A stretch of 64,000 nt of DNA, from the NCBI RefSeq assembly GCF_004010195.1, contig NC_057758.1, positions 1,302,983 to 1,366,982 on the forward strand, written 5' to 3'. Positions 8,749-64,000 of this stretch are shown here, piece by piece. The stretch comes from Chiloscyllium plagiosum. Its lineage: Eukaryota. Both the position numbers and the translations under genes were made by a program. Below the pieces are notes generated by a model, which worked only from the letters and a program-made list of their open reading frames with translations, was not told where the DNA came from and ran no database searches. Positions within the stretch are counted from its first letter, which is position 1, and each line of letters starts with the position of its first letter.

Positions 8749-9248
8749 NNNNNNNNNNNNNNNNNNNNNNNNNNNNNNNNNNNNNNNNNNNNNNNNNNNN
8801 NNNNNNNNNNNNNNNNNNNNNNNNNNNNNNNNNNNNNNNNNNNNNNNNNNNNNNNNNNNNNNNNNNNNNNNNNNNNNNNNNNNNNNNNNNNNNNNNNNNN
8901 NNNNNNNNNNNNNNNNNNNNNNNNNNNNNNNNNNNNNNNNNNNNNNNNNNNNNNNNNNNNNNNNNNNNNNNNNNNNNNNNNNNNNNNNNNNNNNNNNNNN
9001 NNNNNNNNNNNNNNNNNNNNNNNNNNNNNNNNNNNNNNNNNNNNNNNNNNNNNNNNNNNNNNNNNNNNNNNNNNNNNNNNNNNNNNNNNNNNNNNNNNNN
9101 NNNNNNNNNNNNNNNNNNNNNNNNNNNNNNNNNNNNNNNNNNNNNNNNNNNNNNNNNNNNNNNNNNNNNNNNNNNNNNNNNNNNNNNNNNNNNNNNNNNN
9201 NNNNNNNNNNNNNNNNNNNNNNNNNNNNNNNNNNNNNNNNNNNNNNNN
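8749..9248. other. Assembly gap (500 N)
   Basis: Run of N. Confidence 1.
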
Positions 9249-41200: not shown

Positions 41201-41700
41201 NNNNNNNNNNNNNNNNNNNNNNNNNNNNNNNNNNNNNNNNNNNNNNNNNNNNNNNNNNNNNNNNNNNNNNNNNNNNNNNNNNNNNNNNNNNNNNNNNNNN
41301 NNNNNNNNNNNNNNNNNNNNNNNNNNNNNNNNNNNNNNNNNNNNNNNNNNNNNNNNNNNNNNNNNNNNNNNNNNNNNNNNNNNNNNNNNNNNNNNNNNNN
41401 NNNNNNNNNNNNNNNNNNNNNNNNNNNNNNNNNNNNNNNNNNNNNNNNNNNNNNNNNNNNNNNNNNNNNNNNNNNNNNNNNNNNNNNNNNNNNNNNNNNN
41501 NNNNNNNNNNNNNNNNNNNNNNNNNNNNNNNNNNNNNNNNNNNNNNNNNNNNNNNNNNNNNNNNNNNNNNNNNNNNNNNNNNNNNNNNNNNNNNNNNNNN
41601 NNNNNNNNNNNNNNNNNNNNNNNNNNNNNNNNNNNNNNNNNNNNNNNNNNNNNNNNNNNNNNNNNNNNNNNNNNNNNNNNNNNNNNNNNNNNNNNNNNNN
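41201..41700. other. Assembly gap (500 N)
   Basis: Run of N. Confidence 1.
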
Positions 41701-44791: not shown

Positions 44792-45324
44792 NNNNNNNNN
44801 NNNNNNNNNNNNNNNNNNNNNNNNNNNNNNNNNNNNNNNNNNNNNNNNNNNNNNNNNNNNNNNNNNNNNNNNNNNNNNNNNNNNNNNNNNNNNNNNNNNN
44901 NNNNNNNNNNNNNNNNNNNNNNNNNNNNNNNNNNNNNNNNNNNNNNNNNNNNNNNNNNNNNNNNNNNNNNNNNNNNNNNNNNNNNNNNNNNNNNNNNNNN
45001 NNNNNNNNNNNNNNNNNNNNNNNNNNNNNNNNNNNNNNNNNNNNNNNNNNNNNNNNNNNNNNNNNNNNNNNNNNNNNNNNNNNNNNNNNNNNNNNNNNNN
45101 NNNNNNNNNNNNNNNNNNNNNNNNNNNNNNNNNNNNNNNNNNNNNNNNNNNNNNNNNNNNNNNNNNNNNNNNNNNNNNNNNNNNNNNNNNNNNNNNNNNN
45201 NNNNNNNNNNNNNNNNNNNNNNNNNNNNNNNNNNNNNNNNNNNNNNNNNNNNNNNNNNNNNNNNNNNNNNNNNNNNNNNNNNNNNNNNNNNNNNNNNNNN
45301 NNNNNNNNNNNNNNNNNNNNNNNN
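44792..45324. other. Assembly gap (533 N)
   Basis: Run of N. Confidence 1.
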
Positions 45325-53100: not shown

Positions 53101-56100
53101 TTGGCGTGCTACCCATAGCCCTTCCTGTCTGTATCCTACCGGGGGCACACAACCCGGTGCGCTTCGGCCGGTTTCTCCTCTGCACTAACTTGCTGTGGTC
53201 TCCATTTTGGTCTTCAGCTTCTATCTGTCAGATAATAACTCTCAGAAATAGTCTCTGCTTCCTTTTCGTAGTACGTATCAACATGTACATGTCTTTTATT
53301 GTATTTTATTAAAGCTGAAAATGTGTTGCTGGAAAAGCACAGCAGGGCCAGGCAGCATCCAAGGAACAGGAGAATCGACGTTTCGGGGATGAGCCCGAAG
53401 ATTCCTGAAGAAGGGCTCATGCCCGAAACGTCGATTCTCCTGTTCCTTGGATGCTGCCTGGCCTGCTGTGCTTTTCCAGCAACACATTTTCAGCTCTGAT
53501 CTCCAGCATCTGCAGTCCTCACTTTCTCCTGTTTTTTATTAAAGTCCATTAGGCGTTCAGGACTAAACACTTGTGTCTGACTCTCTGCCTGCTCAGGTTT
53601 ATTTTCTGGACCATTATGTCAAACATGGTGACCGCTAGCTGAACCTCAACTCCTTCAAAATTCTCTTTAGTTTTTGCTTCGTGCTGTGACTTTTGTGTGG
53701 GGACGTGTCATTACTCCGTCTAGGAAAGTACCAGGATATTTTTCTTTTCACTCATCAGTTTCCTGGTCTTCCTTGGGCTCTTCCACAACAAGTGTTGTCG
53801 CTCCCACTTTGGATCCTGCGACATCATTACCAGGAAAAAAAACTGGATCCTGAAAATGACACTCTCAATCACTCCCACTGTTACTTTCCCAGTCTTGAGT
53901 TGGCACTCCAACCTGATTTTACGTAGAGGAACGCTAAACTTCTATCCATCTATCGCACAAATTACCAGACTCGCGGGTAACAGGTCAGAAAGAGTGAAAA
54001 TTCGCTCATTTCTTACTACCAGAGATCTCTCAAAAATAAAACTTCTTGCTCTTATCCCCCTGTTCTTTCTGAGTAGCCTATACACTGAGAGGCAAATTCT
54101 TTGTAGAGATCAGGCACTAACTGCCTACCCAGTCCTTGCTTAGTCTATGCACTGTCCTGCAGCGTGTGGACTTTTTCTTTGTTTTTCCTGTCATACTTGC
54201 ACTTATGCTGCTGGCTTTGCTTCTGTTCCCACACTTTCCTTTTCCCACAGTGCTTTCCGTTAACGACCAGCCCTGCAACTTTTTACGTCCCACTTTCTGG
54301 CAGTGAAAACACCTTTTCACAGTGGCCTTCTTAAAACATCAGCGCTGTAATTTTCTGTGTCCCACTCCATTACAGTGAAAACACCGCCGGCATTTGACCT
54401 CGTTTCCACCTTCTTGGCCTTCTTTTTAAACCTGTGTTAAACAATTGCCAGTGTTCTGTAGTAATTGCTTCGTGATTTACAATCTCTCATTCTCCCAGTT
54501 TCTATCTCTCACAGGATGAAATTCTTACCAGAAGCCTGTCTTATATACCAACATGTATTCACCTGCCAACTCTGCTGCTGTTCTCAATAACGGAAATTTC
54601 TGATCATCCACATGAATTCTTATCATCTCTAGAAGTGAGTTATTAAAGTCCTCCAGCAGAATATTCGCTCTTCGAGCCACATAGGTTTTACCTATTTTTA
54701 AGGCCGGCAGCCATCTATCAAAATACTTCTTTTGAACTCAACTCGACCTGGTTCCTTCTTTATGTTACTAAACCACTGTCTATTCACTCCTGGTACCAAT
54801 TCATAAGCAGTTAATATATCTGAGCTCTTCATAATCAATTGACCGCTCATCTCACAGTGCTGCAAATATCTCCTTCGCTCTGCCGACCATTTTAGTCTGA
54901 GCCCGCATTACCCACAACTCCTTGGACCACTCCACCAGCCTAGCTAATTTTTCAAATGCAATAAGAATGCTTTGACATCTTGCTCTTCAAAATATGGCAG
55001 AGTTTTGACATATTTGTCGAGATCACTGCATTCTCTTTTATTGTCTCCATCCTGTTAATTTGGCTTTGCTGACTAAGTTACAGCTTCTCATGTTCAAATT
55101 CTCTCTCTTTTTCACAATCCCTTTCTTGTCTCTCTCTTTCTCTGTCTCGGTGCTTAGCTAAGAACCTAATCTCTCTTTCAATTTCCTCTCTCCCATTCTT
55201 TCCTCTCTCGATATTTCATTCTCCCTCTCTCTTTCCACTCTCTCACTCTTTCTTTGTTTATCTTCTAACTCCATTTCCTCAGTGTCATTATGTTTTTCTA
55301 GCTCTGAAGCACTTTTCTGTTTCTCTGACATGCTTAAATGTTTGACTAATTCCTTTACAATGTCAGCTTTATTTTTGTCCTTGTTTAAACCGAATTCTAA
55401 CACCTTTGTTAATTCTAAGAGTATGGTATTTTCTTTACTTTCTAAACTTTCTTGGCAAATTTGGGTATCATCTTCAAATCCCAGAACCTCTTCAGCATGA
55501 TTAAGAGCAATTTATCTCACTTCTAATTGAACCAACCACCGCTAAACTAAATTAAACAAATCGTCTCAGTACGTCTTATTCGAAGATATAGGATACTAAC
55601 CGACAATATTGAAATCTATTGGGCATTTTGTTTTGTACGCCAAATCTATTCAAACCCGTCCACATGGATCACTCTAAACCTGTCCAAAACACGTACCTGA
55701 GATCCGAAACTGTTATGATTTGTGGTAAACACTCTGTCAATTTAAACCAGACACATAGAAAAGCTCACCTCGCCTCGAAATGTGTTAAAGTATTGGTGAC
55801 AAAGAACTTTCTAACTTCGACTATTGAAGGAAAGCAATTAACAATTTGTTCATTAACTAAAAGTGAAGAGTACATTCAACAACTCTCGGTACTGTAAGCT
55901 TCCATCACTCGAGTGATTTATCTACCTCCCACTCTACAACAACATACTGATCCGATAAAAATCTGGTTAAGATTTACAGAGATAAAAAGAATTCAAAACC
56001 AGCGATTTGTCCGTCTTTCCTTTGTACCTTCCTCTACAGATTTTCTGAGTCATCTTTTCTTTGGTCTTCTGCTGCGCAGGTTTCAAAAAGCGACTGGAGG

Positions 56101-56428
56101 CAGTCTGTTGGTACTGTCTACACTTTGACTAACTGTTCAAAATGCTTGGGTTTTTTTTTGTACCACAAAACGTAAGATCGCTTCATTGATTTGATCTCGT
56201 CAAAACAGTAAAATTCTAATTTGATTGGTCGTTAGTGTCTGGGGTATCATTTAAACTGATTGGCTCAATTTGAATTGTTGTGAGAGAGAAAATTAGCTCA
56301 GGTATCTGTTTTAAAGCCAAAAGTTATTTTTTTTTCAGAGCACTCTGTGCTTGAATTCAGTCACATGACAGACATGCCAGCTTTTCAACTCTCTTAAAGG
56401 TTCATTAGTCGCATGCAACTTCTTAACA
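50121..56428 (-). mobile_element. Inverted near-identical copy of the 41701-47657 Gypsy region, with 5' LTR at 55711-56428
   Basis: 55560 mirrors 41701, 51113 mirrors ~46190, and 50121-50648 mirrors 47130-47657; matching spurious ORFs on opposite strands; LTR has TGTTA...TAACA termini. Confidence 0.92.
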
Positions 56429-56429
56429 C

Positions 56430-58430
56430 GCCCGATGAACGAATGAATGCCGAATAACTTCTTGCCAACTCGCTTGACCTGCGTTCCCATCTTCAGGGGA
56501 CAATGGACCTGCACACCCAGATCTCTCTGTATATCAAATTACCCCAGGGCTTCTCCATTTACTGTACAGTTCAGAGAAAGTGACGACTGCAGATGCTGGA
56601 GATCAGAGTAGAAAAGTGTGATGCTAGAATAGCACCACCTGTCAGGCAGCAACAGAGAACTAGACGTGAGCCCTTCATCAGGAATGGCGCTTGTTGACCA
56701 AGGAGGCAACTTGGAGGGGACGGTGGTTGGGACAGTGATGTGCAGTTGAAATTGGGGGTGAAAGTGATAGGTGAGAACAAAGACGAGCAGGTAGGACCAT
56801 TCAAGAGAGTGGTGCCGAGTTGGGAGTTTGCCACTGGAAAGGTCCTCGGCCTCCTCTATTGTCAAGATGTCCTGGGCACCCGCCATCACCAAATATCGAA
56901 GTGAGACAGAACCAAAGTGTTATAAAGTTTCAACATGTCATCCTGACTCTTGAACTCGATTCGAGCACCACCTTCTTTACCACCCTTCCTAGCTGCGTGA
57001 CCATTTTCAGGGAGCTATGGACTTGAACCCAAACATCCCTCTGTATATCAGTGTTTTTTCAGCTTCCTACCATTCTTTGCCTGAAACTTGGTCTCTCAAA
57101 GTGCAGGACTTCACACTTAGGTAGATTAACTTCCGCCTGCCATTTCTCTTACCCATATCTGCTCCTGACCGACATCCCACTGTGCCCATTCACAGCCTTA
57201 CACAACATCCTTAACTCCACAAATCTTTGCAACGTCTTCAAACTCAGTAACCCAACCAGGCACATTTTCACCCCAGTAATTTATATGTCATAAACAGCAG
57301 AGGCTGTTGTAGGAATCCCTGCGGAACATCATGAGTCACCGGCCTGCAGCCTGAAAATCTCCCTCCGCCACTACCCTCGTGCTTCTCTGGGCAAGCCAAT
57401 TCAGATTCCACCAGGCAGAGTCACAGCAAATCCTGTGCATGTTAATCTTGCAGATGAGCCTACCATGAGGGACGTTACCGAAAGCTGGACTGAAATCTAT
57501 GCAGGCAACATCCACTGTTCTATCCTCATTGATGACTTTTATCACTGCCTTGAAAAATTTGAATGAAGTTAGTAAGGCATGGCTTACCCCACACGAAACC
57601 ATGCTAACTGTCCATAATTCTGCCATGCTTTACTAACTGAGTGCACATCGTATTCCTAAGAATTGTCTCCAATAGCTTCCTAACCAGCAAAGTGAGTCTC
57701 ACCAGTCTACAGTTCACTGGATTACCATTATTCACCTTCTTGAATAGCAGAACCACATTAGCTACTCACTAATTATGGGCGGCATGGTGGCACGGTGGTT
57801 AGCACTGATGCTTCACAGCACCAGAGACCCGGGTTCAATTCCCCCATCAGGTGACTGTGTGGAGTTTGCACATTCTCCCCGTGTCTGCGTGGGTTTCCTC
57901 CGGGTGCTCCGGTTTCCTCCCACAGTCCAAAGATGTGCAGGGTCAGGTGAATTGGCCATGCTAAATTGCCCGTAGTGTTAGGTAAGGGGTAAATGTAGGG
58001 GTATGGATGGTTTGCGCTTCGACGAGTCGGTGTGGACTTGTTGGGCCGAAGGGCCTGTTTCCACACTGTAAGTAATCTAATCTAATCTAATAATTCTCCA
58101 GGACTACTCCCGTTGCTAATTTGGATACAAAGATCTTGGTAAAGCCCACAACAATGTACTCTCCTGCCTCTCTCAATAATATAGTTTAGATACTGTCAGA
58201 CCCTGGGGACTTACCCATCTTAGTGTTCTTCAGAAGACCCAACGCCATTTTTTTCTAGCATATTGGCATGCTCCACACATACGTCACCACCCTCCACATC
58301 CATCTCCTGGGTGAATGCAAATTCCTCATTTCCGATCTCATCCACATCCGCTGCCTCCATGATCAAGTTCCCTCCTTCAACCTACAGTGATCCTACTTTT
58401 CTCCCTCAGTATTTCTTTGTTGTCCAAGTT
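56430..58430 (-). mobile_element. Old CR1-clade LINE with nested PLE fragment (~56575-56900) and SINE
   Basis: 'TVDVACIDFSPAFGNVPHGRL' RT remnant; PLE-like pLTR sequence at 56575-56690. Confidence 0.75.
57777..58090 (+). mobile_element. HE1-like tRNA-derived SINE (full length)
   Basis: A box TGGCACGGTGGTTAGCA, B box GGTTCAATTCC, (TCTAA)n tail. Confidence 0.92.
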
Positions 58431-58726
58431 TATGAATTAAACAACAAAGTCGGGTTGAAATGCCCTTGTACCAATTCAATAGACCGGAGTCGATCCATTG
58501 TGTTTTCAGACTTTGGATGCCAAATCACAGTTTCGGCAATTAGTGATAGGCAATAAATGCTGTCCCAGAAAGTGACACCTACATCCCATGAATGAGAAAC
58601 AAATACATTTTATATTCTCTGCAACTAACGCCAGCTTGATGAAGCAACTGATGTGGTAGTCATCTTCACCATCATATTTAAGCCTTTAGCCAATCGTATT
58701 CTCTCAACACTTACTGCCTGTTCATA

Positions 58727-60086
58727 CATAGAGCATAGAACATTAAAGCACAGTACAGGCCCTTTGACCCTAGATGTTGGGCCAACCTGTGAACCAATCT
58801 GAAGCCTATCTATCCTACACTATTCCATTTTCATATGCGTGTTCATCCAATGACATTATAAATGCCCTTAAAGTTGGCGAGTCTACTGCTGTTACAGTGC
58901 ATTACACGCCCCTGACTACACTCTGAGTAAAGAACCTGCCTCTGAAATCTGTCCGACATCTATCACCCTTCAACTTAAAGCTATGTCCCTTTGTGCTAGC
59001 CATCACCATCCAAGGAAAAAGTCTCATACTCTCCACCCTGTGGAGGGTTACTCTGATTATCTTATACGTCTCAACTAAGTCACCTCTCGACCCTATTGTC
59101 TCTAACGATCACAGCCTCAAGTCCTTCACCCATTCGTCATAACACACCTTCTCTCCAAACCAGGCAACGTCCTTGTAAATCTCCTCTGCACCCTTTCCAC
59201 CTCCTTCCTATAACGTGGTCACCAGAACTGTATGTAATATTCCAAGTGTGGCCACACCAGAGTTTTGTGCAGCTACATCATGACCTCATGGCTCTGAAAC
59301 TCAATCTCTCTGCTAAAACAAGCCAGCACCATATTTCGTCTGAACAACCCTGTCAAGCTGGGTGGAAACTTTCAGGGATCTATGTATATGGACACTGAGA
59401 TCTCTCTGCTCATCTACACTACCAAGAAGCTTACCACTAGCCCAGTACTCTTTATTCCTGTTGCTCTTTCCAATGGGAACCACCTCAAACTTCTCCCCAT
59501 TAAACTCCATTTTCCACCTCTCAGCCCAGCTCTGCATCCTATCTACGTCCCTGTGTAACCTACAACATCCTTCAGCATTATCCACATCTCTACCAACCTT
59601 AGTATCATCCGCAAATGTACTAAGCCATCCTTTTAAACCTTCATCTAGGTCATTCATAAAAATGCCAAACAGCAGTAGACCCAAAAGAGATCCTTCTGGT
59701 AGATCACGGGTAACTGGAATTCAGGATAAAACATTTCCCATCAACCACCACCCTCTGTCTTCTTTCAAGCTAGCCAATTTCTTATCCAATATGATAAATC
59801 ACCCTCAATGACATGTCTCCGTATTTTGTGCAATAACCGACCTTGGGTAACCTTAGCAAATGCCTTACTAAAATCCATACACACCACTTCAACTGCTTTG
59901 CCCATATCCAGCTGCTTCGTCACGATCTCAAAGAGCAAAATAAGGTTTGTGAGGCACGACGTATCCTTCAAAAAACCCTGCTAATTGTCCCTAAACAACT
60001 TATTCCTTTCCAGATGATTATAAATCCGATCTCTTATACCATTCTCCAACACTTAATCCACAACTGAAGTGAGGCTCACTGGTCTA
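58727..60086 (-). mobile_element. CR1-clade LINE, from the RT 'YRPVSLTSVV' motif to the 3' tail
   Basis: 'SCLTNL...VCMDFSKAFAKV', 'FMNDLDEG...FADDTKVG...LHRDVDRMQSWAERWKMEFN'; CATAGA tail repeats at 58727. Confidence 0.92.
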
Positions 60087-60916
60087 TTTTGAAACACTCG
60101 GGGAAGTGCCTTTTCTGAGTCTTTACATCACTCGTCGATGTTGTGTACTCTCTAGCATCACCACAGACCAAGGACCAGGTGATACTGGTGGTATATGAGG
60201 CTGGTTGTTTTCGTCATTATTACCAGGGATTTCGACCGACTGATGTTGGTGATGTTGTCGGTGTTTGTGGACCGGCATCCCCCCCCCCGTTTTTAATTTT
60301 TTTTTTGGTGGGGTTCAGCCTGTCCATGTCTCGGTGAAAGATCTTGTCTCACCGTTTGCGGTCATTTGCTCACTTGCCACTGAAGAGTTGTAAGAGTTCG
60401 AGTGTCAGTGATAGAGTGAATCTTGATGTCTTTTGGGCGAACGTGTCAAATCTCTCGATAACGAGGAATTTCACGAGGCGGTTATTCATGTCCAACCACT
60501 TGCCTCGTGCGCCCATCACAAAGCCAAAGTATTTGAGGTCCACGCCTCCCACCAATTCCGTGACCGCGGCATTTAGTTGTTTACATTTCTCGCGTTTTTC
60601 TCGCCATGCTGTTTCCAGTGCTTTACTATCATTCTCGTACCGCACTGTGACACCTACAACCGCGATCTTCTCCTCTTTTCTAAATCTGAGATCGGGCTTC
60701 CATAGGGAGCCGTCTTTGGCAAACAGCCTGGGCTCCACGTACGGTGTCCAGCCGTACTTACTGACATGTTTCTGCAACTAGTCAGCGATCGCGTTATGGT
60801 GTTTAATTTGAGCGTTTTTCACAAATGGGTAGCATCCTGAGACGTGTGAGATGGTCTCGGTTGCCGTCTCACACCTTCGGCACGGTTTGCTTCGGGTTTG
60901 ACCTTTCTCTAGATAG

Positions 60917-61371
60917 GACTAGCCACACTACCATACATCAGGAGCATCTCGGAACTGACAGCCAGACTACTGCGACCTACCGACATTCTGGCAATAATAC
61001 TCACGACGTGTGCTCTGGAACTTGACACCTGCCAAGCCAAGCTGTTTCAGTACCAGTACGACACTGGCATCTACCGACAGTGTGGAACATCACCGACGTA
61101 TATTCAGCACAAAAACACAGGACAAATACAAACACATCGACCTGGACCCAATATACCGACCACTACAGCGGACAGCTGAAACTGACAACCGGAAGCGGCA
61201 GGGACAGGCCACTATAAACACCGGAGGAAACATCAAAGAAGCGCTTCGCAGGAGGCTCCCAAGCACTGATGATGTCGCCTAGCCAGGGGGCGAAACGTTT
61301 GCAACAAAAACTTCCAGCTCGGCGAACAGAACCACAACAACGAGCACCCGAGCTACAAATCTTCTCACAAA
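60917..61371 (+). mobile_element. Internally rearranged Penelope-like insertion (different family) inside the R2 element
   Basis: 'LATLPYIRSISELTARLLRP' and 'KHIDLDPIYRPL' PLE-type motifs; 14-bp TSD CTTTCTCTAGATAG at 60903-60916 and 61372-61385. Confidence 0.82.
61263..61302 (+). ncRNA. Minimal hammerhead ribozyme motif (second family)
   Basis: GCA-CUGAUGA-U-GUCGCCU-AGCC-AGGGGGC-GAAAC-GUU-UGC: 3-bp stem I, core boxes, 7-bp stem II with one mismatch. Confidence 0.72.
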
Positions 61372-64000
61372 CTTTCTCTAGATAGTGTGGCTCTTGTCGG
61401 GTATAGATTACACCGCAGGAGCACTCTGTTTATGAATCTAGAGGATTTTTGTTGTACTCCGGCTTTTGTCCAAGAATTAGAGATCTTGTCATCTCTAAAG
61501 TACTGGATGCCTGCCCCTTGACATTCCAGTTATTTTCCACTTTTCGAATTCCCACTCCCTCAAACCAACATACCTATTGGGTGGTTTTCTGTCCCCCCCA
61601 CCCCGCGTTTGCCTCCTGGAGTGCAGGCATGATGTCTTGGATGGCGGTCATCGGGTCCATTTCCCCCTCGCCACTTTTGCGGCTACTGGGTTGGAAATTT
61701 TCAATTTCCGTGAGGATCTTGAGCTCGGGCAGTCCCGCAACGGTCTCTGTGTTGCTCTCTCCGTTATATTGAAAGGAGGCCCGAAAGACCACATCACTGG
61801 ACATGTCGAGTGCCTCGCGTTTGCGAACAATCGCGGATGGGATTTGCACTTCCAGTTTTGGGACACCTGGACTGCTGTCCCTGTTGCTGGCGTATAGCAC
61901 TCCATCAGTGGTATGAGGTGGCAGGTGTAGGAATTCTTTGGTGGCGTTACGGATTAGTTGGTCCAGTTTTACGAGAGTTGCCTGAGATGCTTCTGCCAGG
62001 ATCAGGTGGAAGTACAGTCTGGGAATGACGTGTATCTTGAGGATCTCCAGCCGTTGTCATGGTCGGAGTGGTGCCTGCCTGTATTCCTTTAACCCAGGAC
62101 TTCAGCTTCTCCTCCCACTCCCTTTCTGCCACACCTGCCCATGGATCGAACCGGGCACCCAGGTACTGCTCTGTGTCGCCTGGGGGTATGTAGGCTAACT
62201 AAGGTTTTACTTTTAAATGTGAAGTGGAATCCCTTCGTCTTCACTGTGTTAATACTGAGGCCTGTATGGTCTGGAGCAGCTTCAGATTCCTAGCCATTCT
62301 GGTGTGTGAGTCGCTGAGAAGGCCGATGTCATCCACGAACACCAAGGTCGAGCAGTGGACTCTTCTGCCGCCCAGCGGCATGGAGACCCCTGAGTTGGCC
62401 CTCTCCAGAGAGCATACCAATGGATCCAAAGCGACGTTAAATAATATTGGTGAGAGCCTTGTTTTACGCCCCTCTCAATGTTTATTGGTGTGGTTAAGTT
62501 TCCGTCCCCTTCCACCACTGCGGTGTTGCCAGTGCATAGGTCTTCGATGAGACTTACAAAGGCTTTGGGGAGTTTCACTCTTTGCAAGGATTTGATCAAG
62601 AGCTTGTGCCCAACTGAGTCACACGCTTTCGCTCAATCGACAAAGACAAGAGCGAGGTCCTTGCGATTGTGCTTTGCTCACTTCATGCTGTTTTCAAGAT
62701 GACAATGTTTTCATTGCATCCAGGAGTGGCTGCTAGGAACCCCTTTTGCCTGGGGTTTATTTCGACTGCTTCACTCAGGCGTTTTGCCATTATTTTCGTG
62801 AACAGCCGGAGCAGCATCAGACCGATGGTTATTGGTCGCCAGTTGTCAATGTTTTTCAAGCGGCCCTTATCCTCGCACTTAGGAATCAGGACCGTTCAAC
62901 TTTTTTTTTTAGTGAATCGGGTATCGTGCCTGACTTTAGTCATAGGGAGAAGAGGCAGGGTAGACTAGTTTCCTCTTGCTCATGTCCTGCAGTTTCAGGC
63001 CGTCTGGTCCGGCGGCACTGTTCTCGTCTATCCCCTTAATGCTCGCTTCAACCTCCTCTACCTCGATGGGTTTCATCAAGGACCCATCATCGACTTTGCC
63101 AGTGTATAGGGCATACTTATTTATGTTTGATTTTTTATTTGGTGCTGACAGTTTCTCAGAGAAACATGTCTCCAACTCCTCTTTTGAGAGAGGACAGGAG
63201 GATGAGGTTGGTGTCCCCGTGATCTAGTTGGCGCTGGTTAGTTTTGTAAAGCTGCTGTGGCACTTTGCTACCGGTCATTTTGTCTTTCTTGGCCCGGTCT
63301 TTTTGAGGCCTCTTGTCTTGTCCTGTCTTTTCCGACTATTCATTAGTAGGTCGGTAATACTTTCCACTCGTCCGATTCCGAGGGGAAGCGTGTCCGGGTC
63401 GTTCCTCGCACTCAAGAGCACTTCAGCTCGTGTAAGCTGGTCATCTACGTCCCGATGTTTAGGGATCGAAGCCGGTGTTCTTCGGCTGGCTCTTTGGCGT
63501 TGGGCTCGATTGTCGGAATTTTCCTGGACACTCTCTGCCTCGGGATCGTGCGCGTCTCATGGTTGTGAACTCTGCCGGGGTGTTTGCCAGGAGCCTGCGG
63601 TTATCCGAGATTTGCTTTGGTGTTTTTGTTTTAAGGATGCTGGCGATGGATTTCTTTGATAAACTTGCGTCCTGCAAATCTCACCTCCAATTCCCTCAGG
63701 AGTGCCACCCCCTCCTGTGACCGTACGCGGTCACTTCTCCCAGGTTTGCCCTTGACTTTGGGTGCCGGCTTGAGGCGTTTCTCGTTGCGTAGAACCAGTT
63801 GTCTGTGCCTCTCGCGTTGACCAAGGCCCGACTGTGTAGAAAACGGTTGCGCTGCATGCAAAGTCCCCAGTTGGGGGGTGCTTTGCTCCTTTGCATTTTG
63901 GATAGTGGTAGGCGATTGAATGGTATTCTCCTGCTTTGTCACAGCGTGAACATTTTGCTCGGATGTTCTTTATTCCGTGCACTTTAGTGACATGAGTCTT

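Follow-up and report, generated by a model that had tools for sequence, protein, structure and literature searches.

R2 proteins of lineage A are under development for gene insertion. When avian A-lineage R2 inserts off target, the sequence match lies chiefly in the 4-5 nt immediately downstream of the nick (PMC11371274, PMC12222951). Dead R2 copies outside the rDNA are described for five Drosophila species (PMC2718515). Among sharks, Table S2 of PMC13188248 lists R2-1_STig, a lineage-A element of the zebra shark, with canonical 28S on both sides, three zinc fingers and a 1,317-aa ORF, as well as R2-1_SCa, for which the 28S upstream amounts to only ~100 nt.

The stretch of 64,000 nucleotides analyzed here (the window) carries a minus-strand remnant of an R2 element at positions 60087-64000, with zinc fingers, Myb, RT, CCHC and RLE, which continues past the window end. 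R2-1_STig is its closest described family member. The features of this copy and of its neighbor are as follows.

63848..64000, minus strand: ZF3 tail and ZF2 (CCHC) of the R2 ORF (9nl2, E 2.8e-07; 39/51 residues identical to R2-1_STig, counted by hand)
63585..63847, minus strand: ZF1 (CCHH, damaged) and Myb, split by frameshifts (54/65 identities with R2-1_STig from ZF1 into the first part of Myb, counted by hand)
61386..63584, minus strand: spacer, RT, thumb and linker, with frameshifts and stops (tblastn, 75-76% mean identity to Chiloscyllium P0002 and P0006)
61372..61385, minus strand: 14-bp target-site duplication of the insert, copy 1 (sequence)
60917..61371, plus strand: 455-bp high-copy insert within the R2 ORF (sequence, raw-read depth)
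60903..60916, minus strand: 14-bp target-site duplication of the insert, copy 2 (sequence)
60370..60902, minus strand: CCHC knuckle, restriction-like endonuclease and stop codon (PDB match for RLE)
60087..60369, minus strand: R2 3' UTR of 283 nt (match to R2-1_STig over the distal 132 nt, 60087-60218)
60073..60086, minus strand: CR1 junction stretch, a partial mimic of the 28S target (8/14 ungapped, first three bases exact)
58726..60086, minus strand: decayed CR1 LINE, beginning at the RPVSL codons of ORF2 and complete to the CR1 3' end (homology; 6 frameshifts and 5 stops)

The original prediction placed the element in the R2 clade, and both the PDB search and the RT tree agree with it. At E<0.001, R2 chains were the sole PDB matches of the window pieces tested, with best matches at E 2.8e-07 for the N-terminus (9nl2), E 2.2e-15 for the thumb region and E 1.3e-20 for the RLE. 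P0005 scored 510-552 bits against 9dou, 9nl3 and 9nl2 and 225-230 bits against the next R2 entries, 8gh6 and 8ibw, both of which we take to be R2Bm. In a quick IQ-TREE analysis of the RT (32 rows, midpoint root, R2 rows only), the window falls within an 11-row clade (SH-aLRT 100) that holds all shark rows, where it forms a polytomy together with turtle and coelacanth R2. Because of this placement and the PDB ranking, to which the domain remnants can be added, the window element is classified by its sequence as a lineage-A R2. A non-R2 RLE clade was ruled out by the PDB ranking, the presence of Myb and the identity to R2-1_STig, which reaches 76-83% over the zinc-finger and Myb region (counted by hand). 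The domain order that had been proposed, three zinc fingers followed by Myb, RT, CCHC and RLE, stands for Myb, RT, CCHC, RLE, ZF2 and ZF1; of ZF3, only the last residues lie in the window. A three-finger layout is therefore suggested by analogy with R2-1_STig, the R2 5' end being expected ~700 nt past position 64000 and thus outside the sequence read. In R2-1_STig, 219 codons and 59 nt precede the residue that aligns with 64000, which would put the 5' end of a full-length copy near 64,716.

The window copy is a dead, old fossil. Its ORF holds 16 frameshifts and 6 stops (22 lesions over 3,137 aligned nt), which rules out an active element. The CR1 flank has 6 frameshifts and 5 stops (11 lesions over 1,247 nt), and these similar densities give no time order of R2 and CR1. 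In a Pfam search of 11 window pieces, the sole piece past the cut-off was CR1 (RVT_1, E 1.4e-07); the R2 pieces had no match because they are too broken. Folding of the terminal 139 nt of the 3' UTR is no more stable than that of shuffled sequences (z = -0.95).

The ORF is also interrupted, directly before the CCHC knuckle, by the 455-bp insert flanked on both sides by the 14-bp duplication, a feature absent from the original prediction. Raw-read depth reaches ~11,000 over the insert vs ~10 over R2, and other R2 copies are without it (read joints from 60882 to 61370-61381). The insert, which had no Pfam match, is presumably Penelope-like.

Elsewhere in sharks, the family is represented by several further copies, likewise decayed. 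Seven of eight matches lie on shark scaffolds of 0.26-4.4 Mb, and for the four relatives on Chiloscyllium scaffolds the gene models are partial (365-657 aa). Read depth indicates roughly 15-30 copies per genome; other copies, compared over their longest contig pieces, are ~7-18% diverged from the window copy, mostly 11-18% (read-based). Among the rows of PMC13188248 Table S2 that were compared, 28S lies downstream in 4/5 members of the shark sublineage, as assigned by eye. The R2 reported at 28S in Chiloscyllium, R2-1_CPu (P0009), shares 38% identity with the window, falls outside its clade and is, by sequence, a different sublineage. A metagenome scan with a 21-nt 3' UTR pattern gave 0 matches, and a second scan gave one distant locus, at 31% identity, from 394 candidate stretches.

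With regard to the junction, the assembly sequence at 60087/60086 reads GAGTGTTTCAAAA on the R2 side and continues as TAGACCAGTGAGCC on the CR1 side. Homology to CR1 ORF2 begins at 60085, at the R of YRPVSL; on the CR1 side it is preceded by no more than the third base of the Y codon and one A assignable to either element. The 3' UTRs of the window copy and of R2-1_STig match in 119/134 final columns (counted by hand) and share the terminus followed by TAG. This distal match identifies 60087 as the true 3' end of the family, so both the 3' end that had been claimed and the same-strand YRPVSL motif directly after it are borne out. Unlike R2-1_STig, the window copy is broken, has CR1 as its 3' flank and carries a 3' UTR of 283 nt vs 216 nt; the additional length lies in the proximal part, which varies among copies (read joints from 60173).

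The reported absence of rDNA was likewise confirmed. Rfam gave 0 matches at gathering score in the whole 64-kb window and one chance-level match in 56000-64000, and a 28S motif search gave 3 matches vs 5.9 expected. The copy thus lies outside a 28S gene, with CR1 as its 3' flank and no rDNA in the window, and is a displaced copy rather than a resident 28S element. A simple CR1 insertion into a stray R2-28S copy was ruled out, as there is no 28S past the CR1 3' end or elsewhere in the window.

The CR1 flank resembles the 28S site above chance, as had been proposed. It matches in 8/14 positions ungapped, a score equaled or bettered by 1,334/124,792 window sites (top 1.07%), and is the best gapped 28S match among the 31 TAG sites of the CR1. 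The first three bases downstream of the junction are identical to the 28S tail and the fourth is a mismatch. By analogy, this flank is consistent with the published off-target signature of A-lineage R2. Upstream, all three other window CR1 copies spanning the motif have T at -20 and match the 28S -25..-19 box in 4-5/7 positions when the register is shifted one base upstream. This register is one of three that were compared post hoc, the match comes from other, related CR1 copies, its background is 3.6% (7% over two registers), and the plain register gives 2-3/7 with no T at -20; these points, like the mismatch at the fourth downstream base, weigh against the off-target insertion. CR1 also offers a large target, since CR1-type ORF2 spans 9,298/62,467 window bases.

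On balance, we somewhat favor a one-off, old off-target insertion into CR1 by a 28S-targeting shark lineage-A R2, a reading drawn from the 3' junction. The R2 RNA would have been made as part of a 28S transcript and would have ended in a 28S tail of a few bases. A nick made by the R2 endonuclease in a resident CR1, at the YRPVSL Y codon, may then have freed a strand that could pair with 3-4 bases of this tail and prime reverse transcription, by which at least 3.4 kb of R2 would have been copied into CR1. Outside the rDNA, the copy would have been left with no promoter and would have decayed, and a high-copy element would later have inserted into it with a 14-bp duplication. The window copy would be one among several fossils of this shark sublineage. 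The junction lies exactly at the R2 3' end, as predicted by target-primed reverse transcription, and the copy belongs to the same family as the 28S-resident R2-1_STig; both points argue for the off-target insertion.

The main rival is a template-switch chimera, which we consider unlikely. CR1 reverse transcriptase, working on its own RNA, would have stalled on reaching the YRPVSL codons and switched templates to an R2 transcript, entering at its 3' end with a partial match between the CR1 cDNA and the 28S tail as the guide, and R2 and the 5'-truncated CR1 would have been inserted as a unit. Under this reading, too, R2 should end exactly at its 3' terminus, the junction should be 28S-like and the two elements should be equally old, and the similar lesion densities of R2 and CR1 fit it equally well, which weighs against the off-target insertion. 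It does not predict a 28S-like upstream box in CR1, a weak objection, and R2 transcripts are probably scarce next to U6, which also counts against it. PMC4476161 describes chimeras that join U6 to L1, L2 or RTE, together with a single CR1 case that is inconclusive as a precedent. In another reading, the CR1 segment coding for K-G-x-R-x-x-P-G-N-Y-R-P acted as a pseudo-28S site, with short downstream pairing and a -25..-19 box with T at -20, that was hit repeatedly by this shark sublineage while it still used 28S. The abundance of CR1, the above-chance downstream likeness, the possible upstream box and the several copies on 0.26-4.4 Mb scaffolds speak for such a recurrent target; with a single junction at hand, we regard it as quite improbable.

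Less probable again is a DNA-level event, in which a displaced R2-28S junction lost its 28S through microhomology-guided deletion or recombination into a downstream CR1. Strays bearing 28S appear to exist, judging from the Table S2 entry for R2-1_SCa with its ~100 nt, and the junction shows short microhomology; nevertheless, a deletion has no reason to stop at the R2 terminus, and the window retains no 28S, either beyond the CR1 3' end or elsewhere. That an R2 end and a CR1 copy were misjoined during assembly is hardly credible. The assembly is scaffold-level with three N gaps, the junction is in none of the read pieces listed, and the best read run contains a fraction of 0.40 of the sampled words; however, the nearest gap is >14 kb away, the overlap is only a few bases, and a join precisely at the R2 end with a 28S-like flank would be unexpected. 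We give the least credence of all to a fully retargeted lineage that left 28S and now targets CR1. The 28S R2 of Chiloscyllium belongs to another sublineage, so the window family may have lost the rDNA there, and target shifts are known for R8 and R9 (PMC5035012). Against this, R2-1_STig occupies canonical 28S, the copy in the window is dead, the four Chiloscyllium relatives are partial gene models, and no young CR1-flanked copy was found. The suggestion of an R2 lineage targeting CR1 is thus not supported, given 28S on both sides of R2-1_STig, 28S downstream in most of the sublineage entries of Table S2, and one junction in an old fossil; of the relaxed-specificity reading, occasional off-target insertion is the part that we prefer.

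As it stands, the locus is one old stray from a described shark R2 family and of modest interest. A natural germ-line insertion carrying the short-homology signature of engineered off-targets would lend that rule independent support. The old copies of each genome could yield a natural off-target logo and may preserve a record of how R2 sublineages replaced one another in shark rDNA. Were the CR1 site common to many copies, this would be an R2 with another retrotransposon as a secondary target, for which a literature search at record level found no published case, and recurrent CR1 targeting would have turned a repeat that is among the most abundant of the genome into a fossil archive of the natural off-target sites of R2.

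Among known systems, R2-type elements outside 28S, like the window copy, comprise R2NS-1_SMed and R2NS-1_CSi (PMC5035012), cockroach R2-like elements (PMC7650587) and sponge R2-homologous elements (PMC13188248). The R2NS families, of clades D and C, have young copies outside the rDNA (>98% to consensus), whereas the window copy, judged on this copy alone, is old (22 lesions/3,137 nt) and of lineage A, and a related shark still carries the family at 28S. The Drosophila extra-rDNA copies, diverged, often incomplete and found in species that also have 28S R2, resemble the window case, although they are 1-2% diverged (PMC2718515) vs ~7-18% between the other shark copies and the window copy. The U6-LINE chimeras of PMC4476161 join an exact RNA 3' end to a 5'-truncated LINE, as at the window junction, but the partner here would be a multi-kilobase R2 RNA and their CR1 case is uncertain. 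The avian and turtle A-lineage R2 (9dou R2Tg, 9nl3, 9nl2) have the same domain order and were the best PDB matches of every window piece tested; in contrast to the window copy, to which they are only ~35-40% identical, they are active. Their off-target signature fits the window junction, which is natural, whereas theirs was measured in cultured cells with engineered templates.

This analysis indicates that the R2 copy in the window is a fossil stray of a described shark family that targets 28S rDNA. The features concerned, in window coordinates, are the following:

64000 to 60087, minus strand: retroelement with zinc fingers, Myb, RT, CCHC knuckle and restriction-like endonuclease
60917-61371: 455-bp insert that interrupts the R2 ORF ahead of the CCHC knuckle and is bounded by a perfect 14-bp target duplication
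60369-60087, minus strand: 3' UTR of R2, with CR1 directly after
60085 to near 58726, minus strand (same strand as R2): CR1, with ORF2 homology from 60085, starting with RPVSL, to its 3' end
8749-9248, 41201-41700 and 44792-45324: three N gaps of 500-533 bases (scaffold-level assembly)

Elsewhere in the window, one stretch occurs twice in opposite orientation, at ~44250 (minus) and ~53030 (plus), with identical translations and with one copy near the gap at 44792-45324; the pair is either a duplication in inverted orientation or an echo produced by the assembly.

The naming of the element as R2 was confirmed. PDB searches with three window pieces gave R2 chains as the top matches in each case, vertebrate A-lineage chains ranking above other R2, and the identity to R2-1_STig described below agrees. 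With regard to the three-zinc-finger layout of the original prediction, fingers are present, and only the tail of ZF3 falls within the window. Over 3,137 nt, frameshift-aware alignment to intact relatives revealed 16 frameshifts along with 6 stops; a few of the frameshifts fall in a spacer of low conservation and may be artefacts of the alignment. The copy is dead. The 455-bp insert, which other R2 copies in the reads do not carry, is composite, comprising very high-copy parts at ~60915-60977 and ~61128-61375 and a middle part with a read depth of ~190-200. Raw read depth over the insert reaches ~11,000, and an opposite-strand joint is seen in the reads at 61180/61209. The insert gave no Pfam or Rfam match; a C-terminal motif suggests that it is Penelope-like.

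When a 160-aa piece was used as query, eight of 439 candidate proteins matched. Chiloscyllium punctatum accounts for four gene models (72-83% identity), on scaffolds 0.53-4.4 Mb long, and Scyliorhinus torazame for three (55-64% identity), on scaffolds 0.26-0.49 Mb long; the eighth match is a Logan protein. These scaffold lengths suggest that family copies lie outside rDNA, and the matches point to a carpet shark as the probable host. A quick tree was built from 31 of 122 proteins (named or high-ranking) plus a conceptual translation of the window, X standing for each break, with no non-R2 outgroup. The window RT, whose placement the original prediction had proposed, groups with shark R2: it joins four Chiloscyllium copies (SH-aLRT 99) within a clade of 11 rows (SH-aLRT 100) to which every shark row belongs, in an open fork with R2 of turtle and coelacanth. 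Another R2 protein, P0010 (full-length, 1,291 aa), lies on a 156-Mb painted-turtle sequence and carries the name of a PDE3B isoform. It may represent either a young R2 away from the rDNA or an rDNA unit beside the PDE3B gene. Two R2-like proteins, P0037 and P0087, are assigned to Aeromonas metagenome-assembled genomes, for which host contamination is the probable reason.

By hand count, the window is identical to R2-1_STig, a zebra-shark lineage-A R2, at 39/51 and 54/65 residues in the finger and Myb region, and equal to its distal 3' UTR at 119/134 columns, to the last base (PMC13188248). As the match runs up to the last base and R2-1_STig has canonical 28S on each side (PMC13188248, Table S2), 60087 is the genuine 3' terminus and the family targets 28S. 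At sequence level, membership of the window R2 in the R2-1_STig family can be considered settled. Among the 11 of 15 chondrichthyan rows viewed in Table S2, five are by eye of the window's sublineage. STig-1, SAc and CMax are flanked by 28S on both sides; R2-1_SCa (663-aa ORF in 4,433 nt) has 28S downstream and ~100 nt of 28S upstream after other sequence, and R2-1_CCar has empty flank cells (PMC13188248). The latter two may themselves be displaced copies. R2-1_CPu (P0009), reported at 28S in C. punctatum, belongs to a different sublineage and is 38% identical to the window. The C. punctatum scaffold copies P0001, P0002, P0003 and P0006 cluster with the window and are similar to R2-1_STig, whereas P0009 at 28S differs, which may mean that one R2 sublineage took the place of another in the rDNA.

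Raw reads came from two runs labelled with the best-matching organism (1,934 Mb each, 80% likeness), which may be other than the window's species; the best run contained 0.40 of the sampled words. Over 26 bins outside the insert, mean depth on the R2 body was ~11.5 and ~9.2, with no increase toward the 3' end. For an assumed genome of 3.5-4.5 Gb, the family would amount to some 15-30 copy-equivalents. Most of the longest contig pieces diverge from the window copy by 11-18%, and many sites carry a letter found in the window only; the predominant changes are C>T and G>A. In one run, X15, contig word depth reaches 1,100-1,800 over 60326-60589, the end of the R2 ORF, with no such jump in raw reads; this would fit a fusion of the ORF end to a high-copy element.

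The R2 3' end is joined directly to the same-strand CR1, and no rDNA was found in searches of the whole window, both as originally predicted. A CR1 ORF2 is also found in P0123, a protein named as a catshark MINPP1b isoform. Ungapped, the CR1 flank matches the 14-nt 28S downstream motif at 8/14 positions, a value equalled or exceeded at 1,334 of 124,792 window sites, 131 of which also begin TAG. Its gapped score is equalled or exceeded by 42 of 1,175 TAG sites and, in a sample of 6,000 sites, by 15, and is the best of the 31 TAG sites in this CR1. Because the scoring was chosen after the site was seen, the likeness is read as p ~0.01. The predicted resemblance to the 28S site therefore holds above chance; it says that the R2/CR1 join was sequence-guided and is silent on which enzyme. 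Off-target sites of avian A-lineage R2 were described as sharing little with 28S beyond the primer-complementary bases just downstream (PMC11371274), and a larger set shows a 4-5 nt downstream match and a -25..-19 box with T at -20 (PMC12222951). As the upstream side of the present site is missing, this box was scored on the three further CR1 copies of the window in which the motif is covered. Read in the plain register, these agree with the box at 2-3 of 7 positions, with T at -20 in none; one base upstream, a register permitted by the A common to both elements, the agreement is 5, 4 and 5 of 7, and each copy has T at -20 (background 3.6% for at least 4/7, 0.8% for at least 5/7). Since these are related copies from other CR1 subfamilies and the choice of register was made post hoc, the putative 28S-like upstream box in CR1 is a lead only.

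The firm points for the mechanism are the exact R2 3' end, the 28S-like CR1 flank, the 28S-targeting family and the old age. Off-target target-primed reverse transcription would have put R2 into a resident CR1, and we infer, with moderate confidence, that this is the most likely origin. The main rival, distinctly less probable, is a template switch in which nascent CR1 cDNA acted as primer through the same pairing, on the model of U6-LINE chimeras (PMC4476161). Lesion density (7.0 per kb in R2 vs 8.8 in CR1) does not separate the two. A recurrent hot spot in CR1 is unlikely, a deletion somewhat less likely still, and misassembly very improbable. Both the hot spot and a fully retargeted lineage, to which we give the least credence, would require more than the one junction in hand. 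CR1 insertion into an R2-28S stray was excluded, because no 28S follows the CR1. The original proposal of an R2 lineage using CR1 as its target was thus not sustained, the family being 28S-targeting, the copy dead and the junction single.

Among the papers listed in our searches, which included few subscription papers, none was found that deals with CR1 as a target of R2 or with R2 copies dispersed in shark genomes, and term searches of the reviews PMC13580325 and PMC13586686 gave nothing further. Dispersed shark copies are not discussed under the terms searched in the main text and section 5 of PMC13188248. Related systems are on record: non-specific R2 families and shifted targets (PMC5035012; PMC7650587; PMC13188248), dead extra-rDNA R2 copies (PMC2718515), and shark R2s at 28S, as catalogued in PMC13188248.
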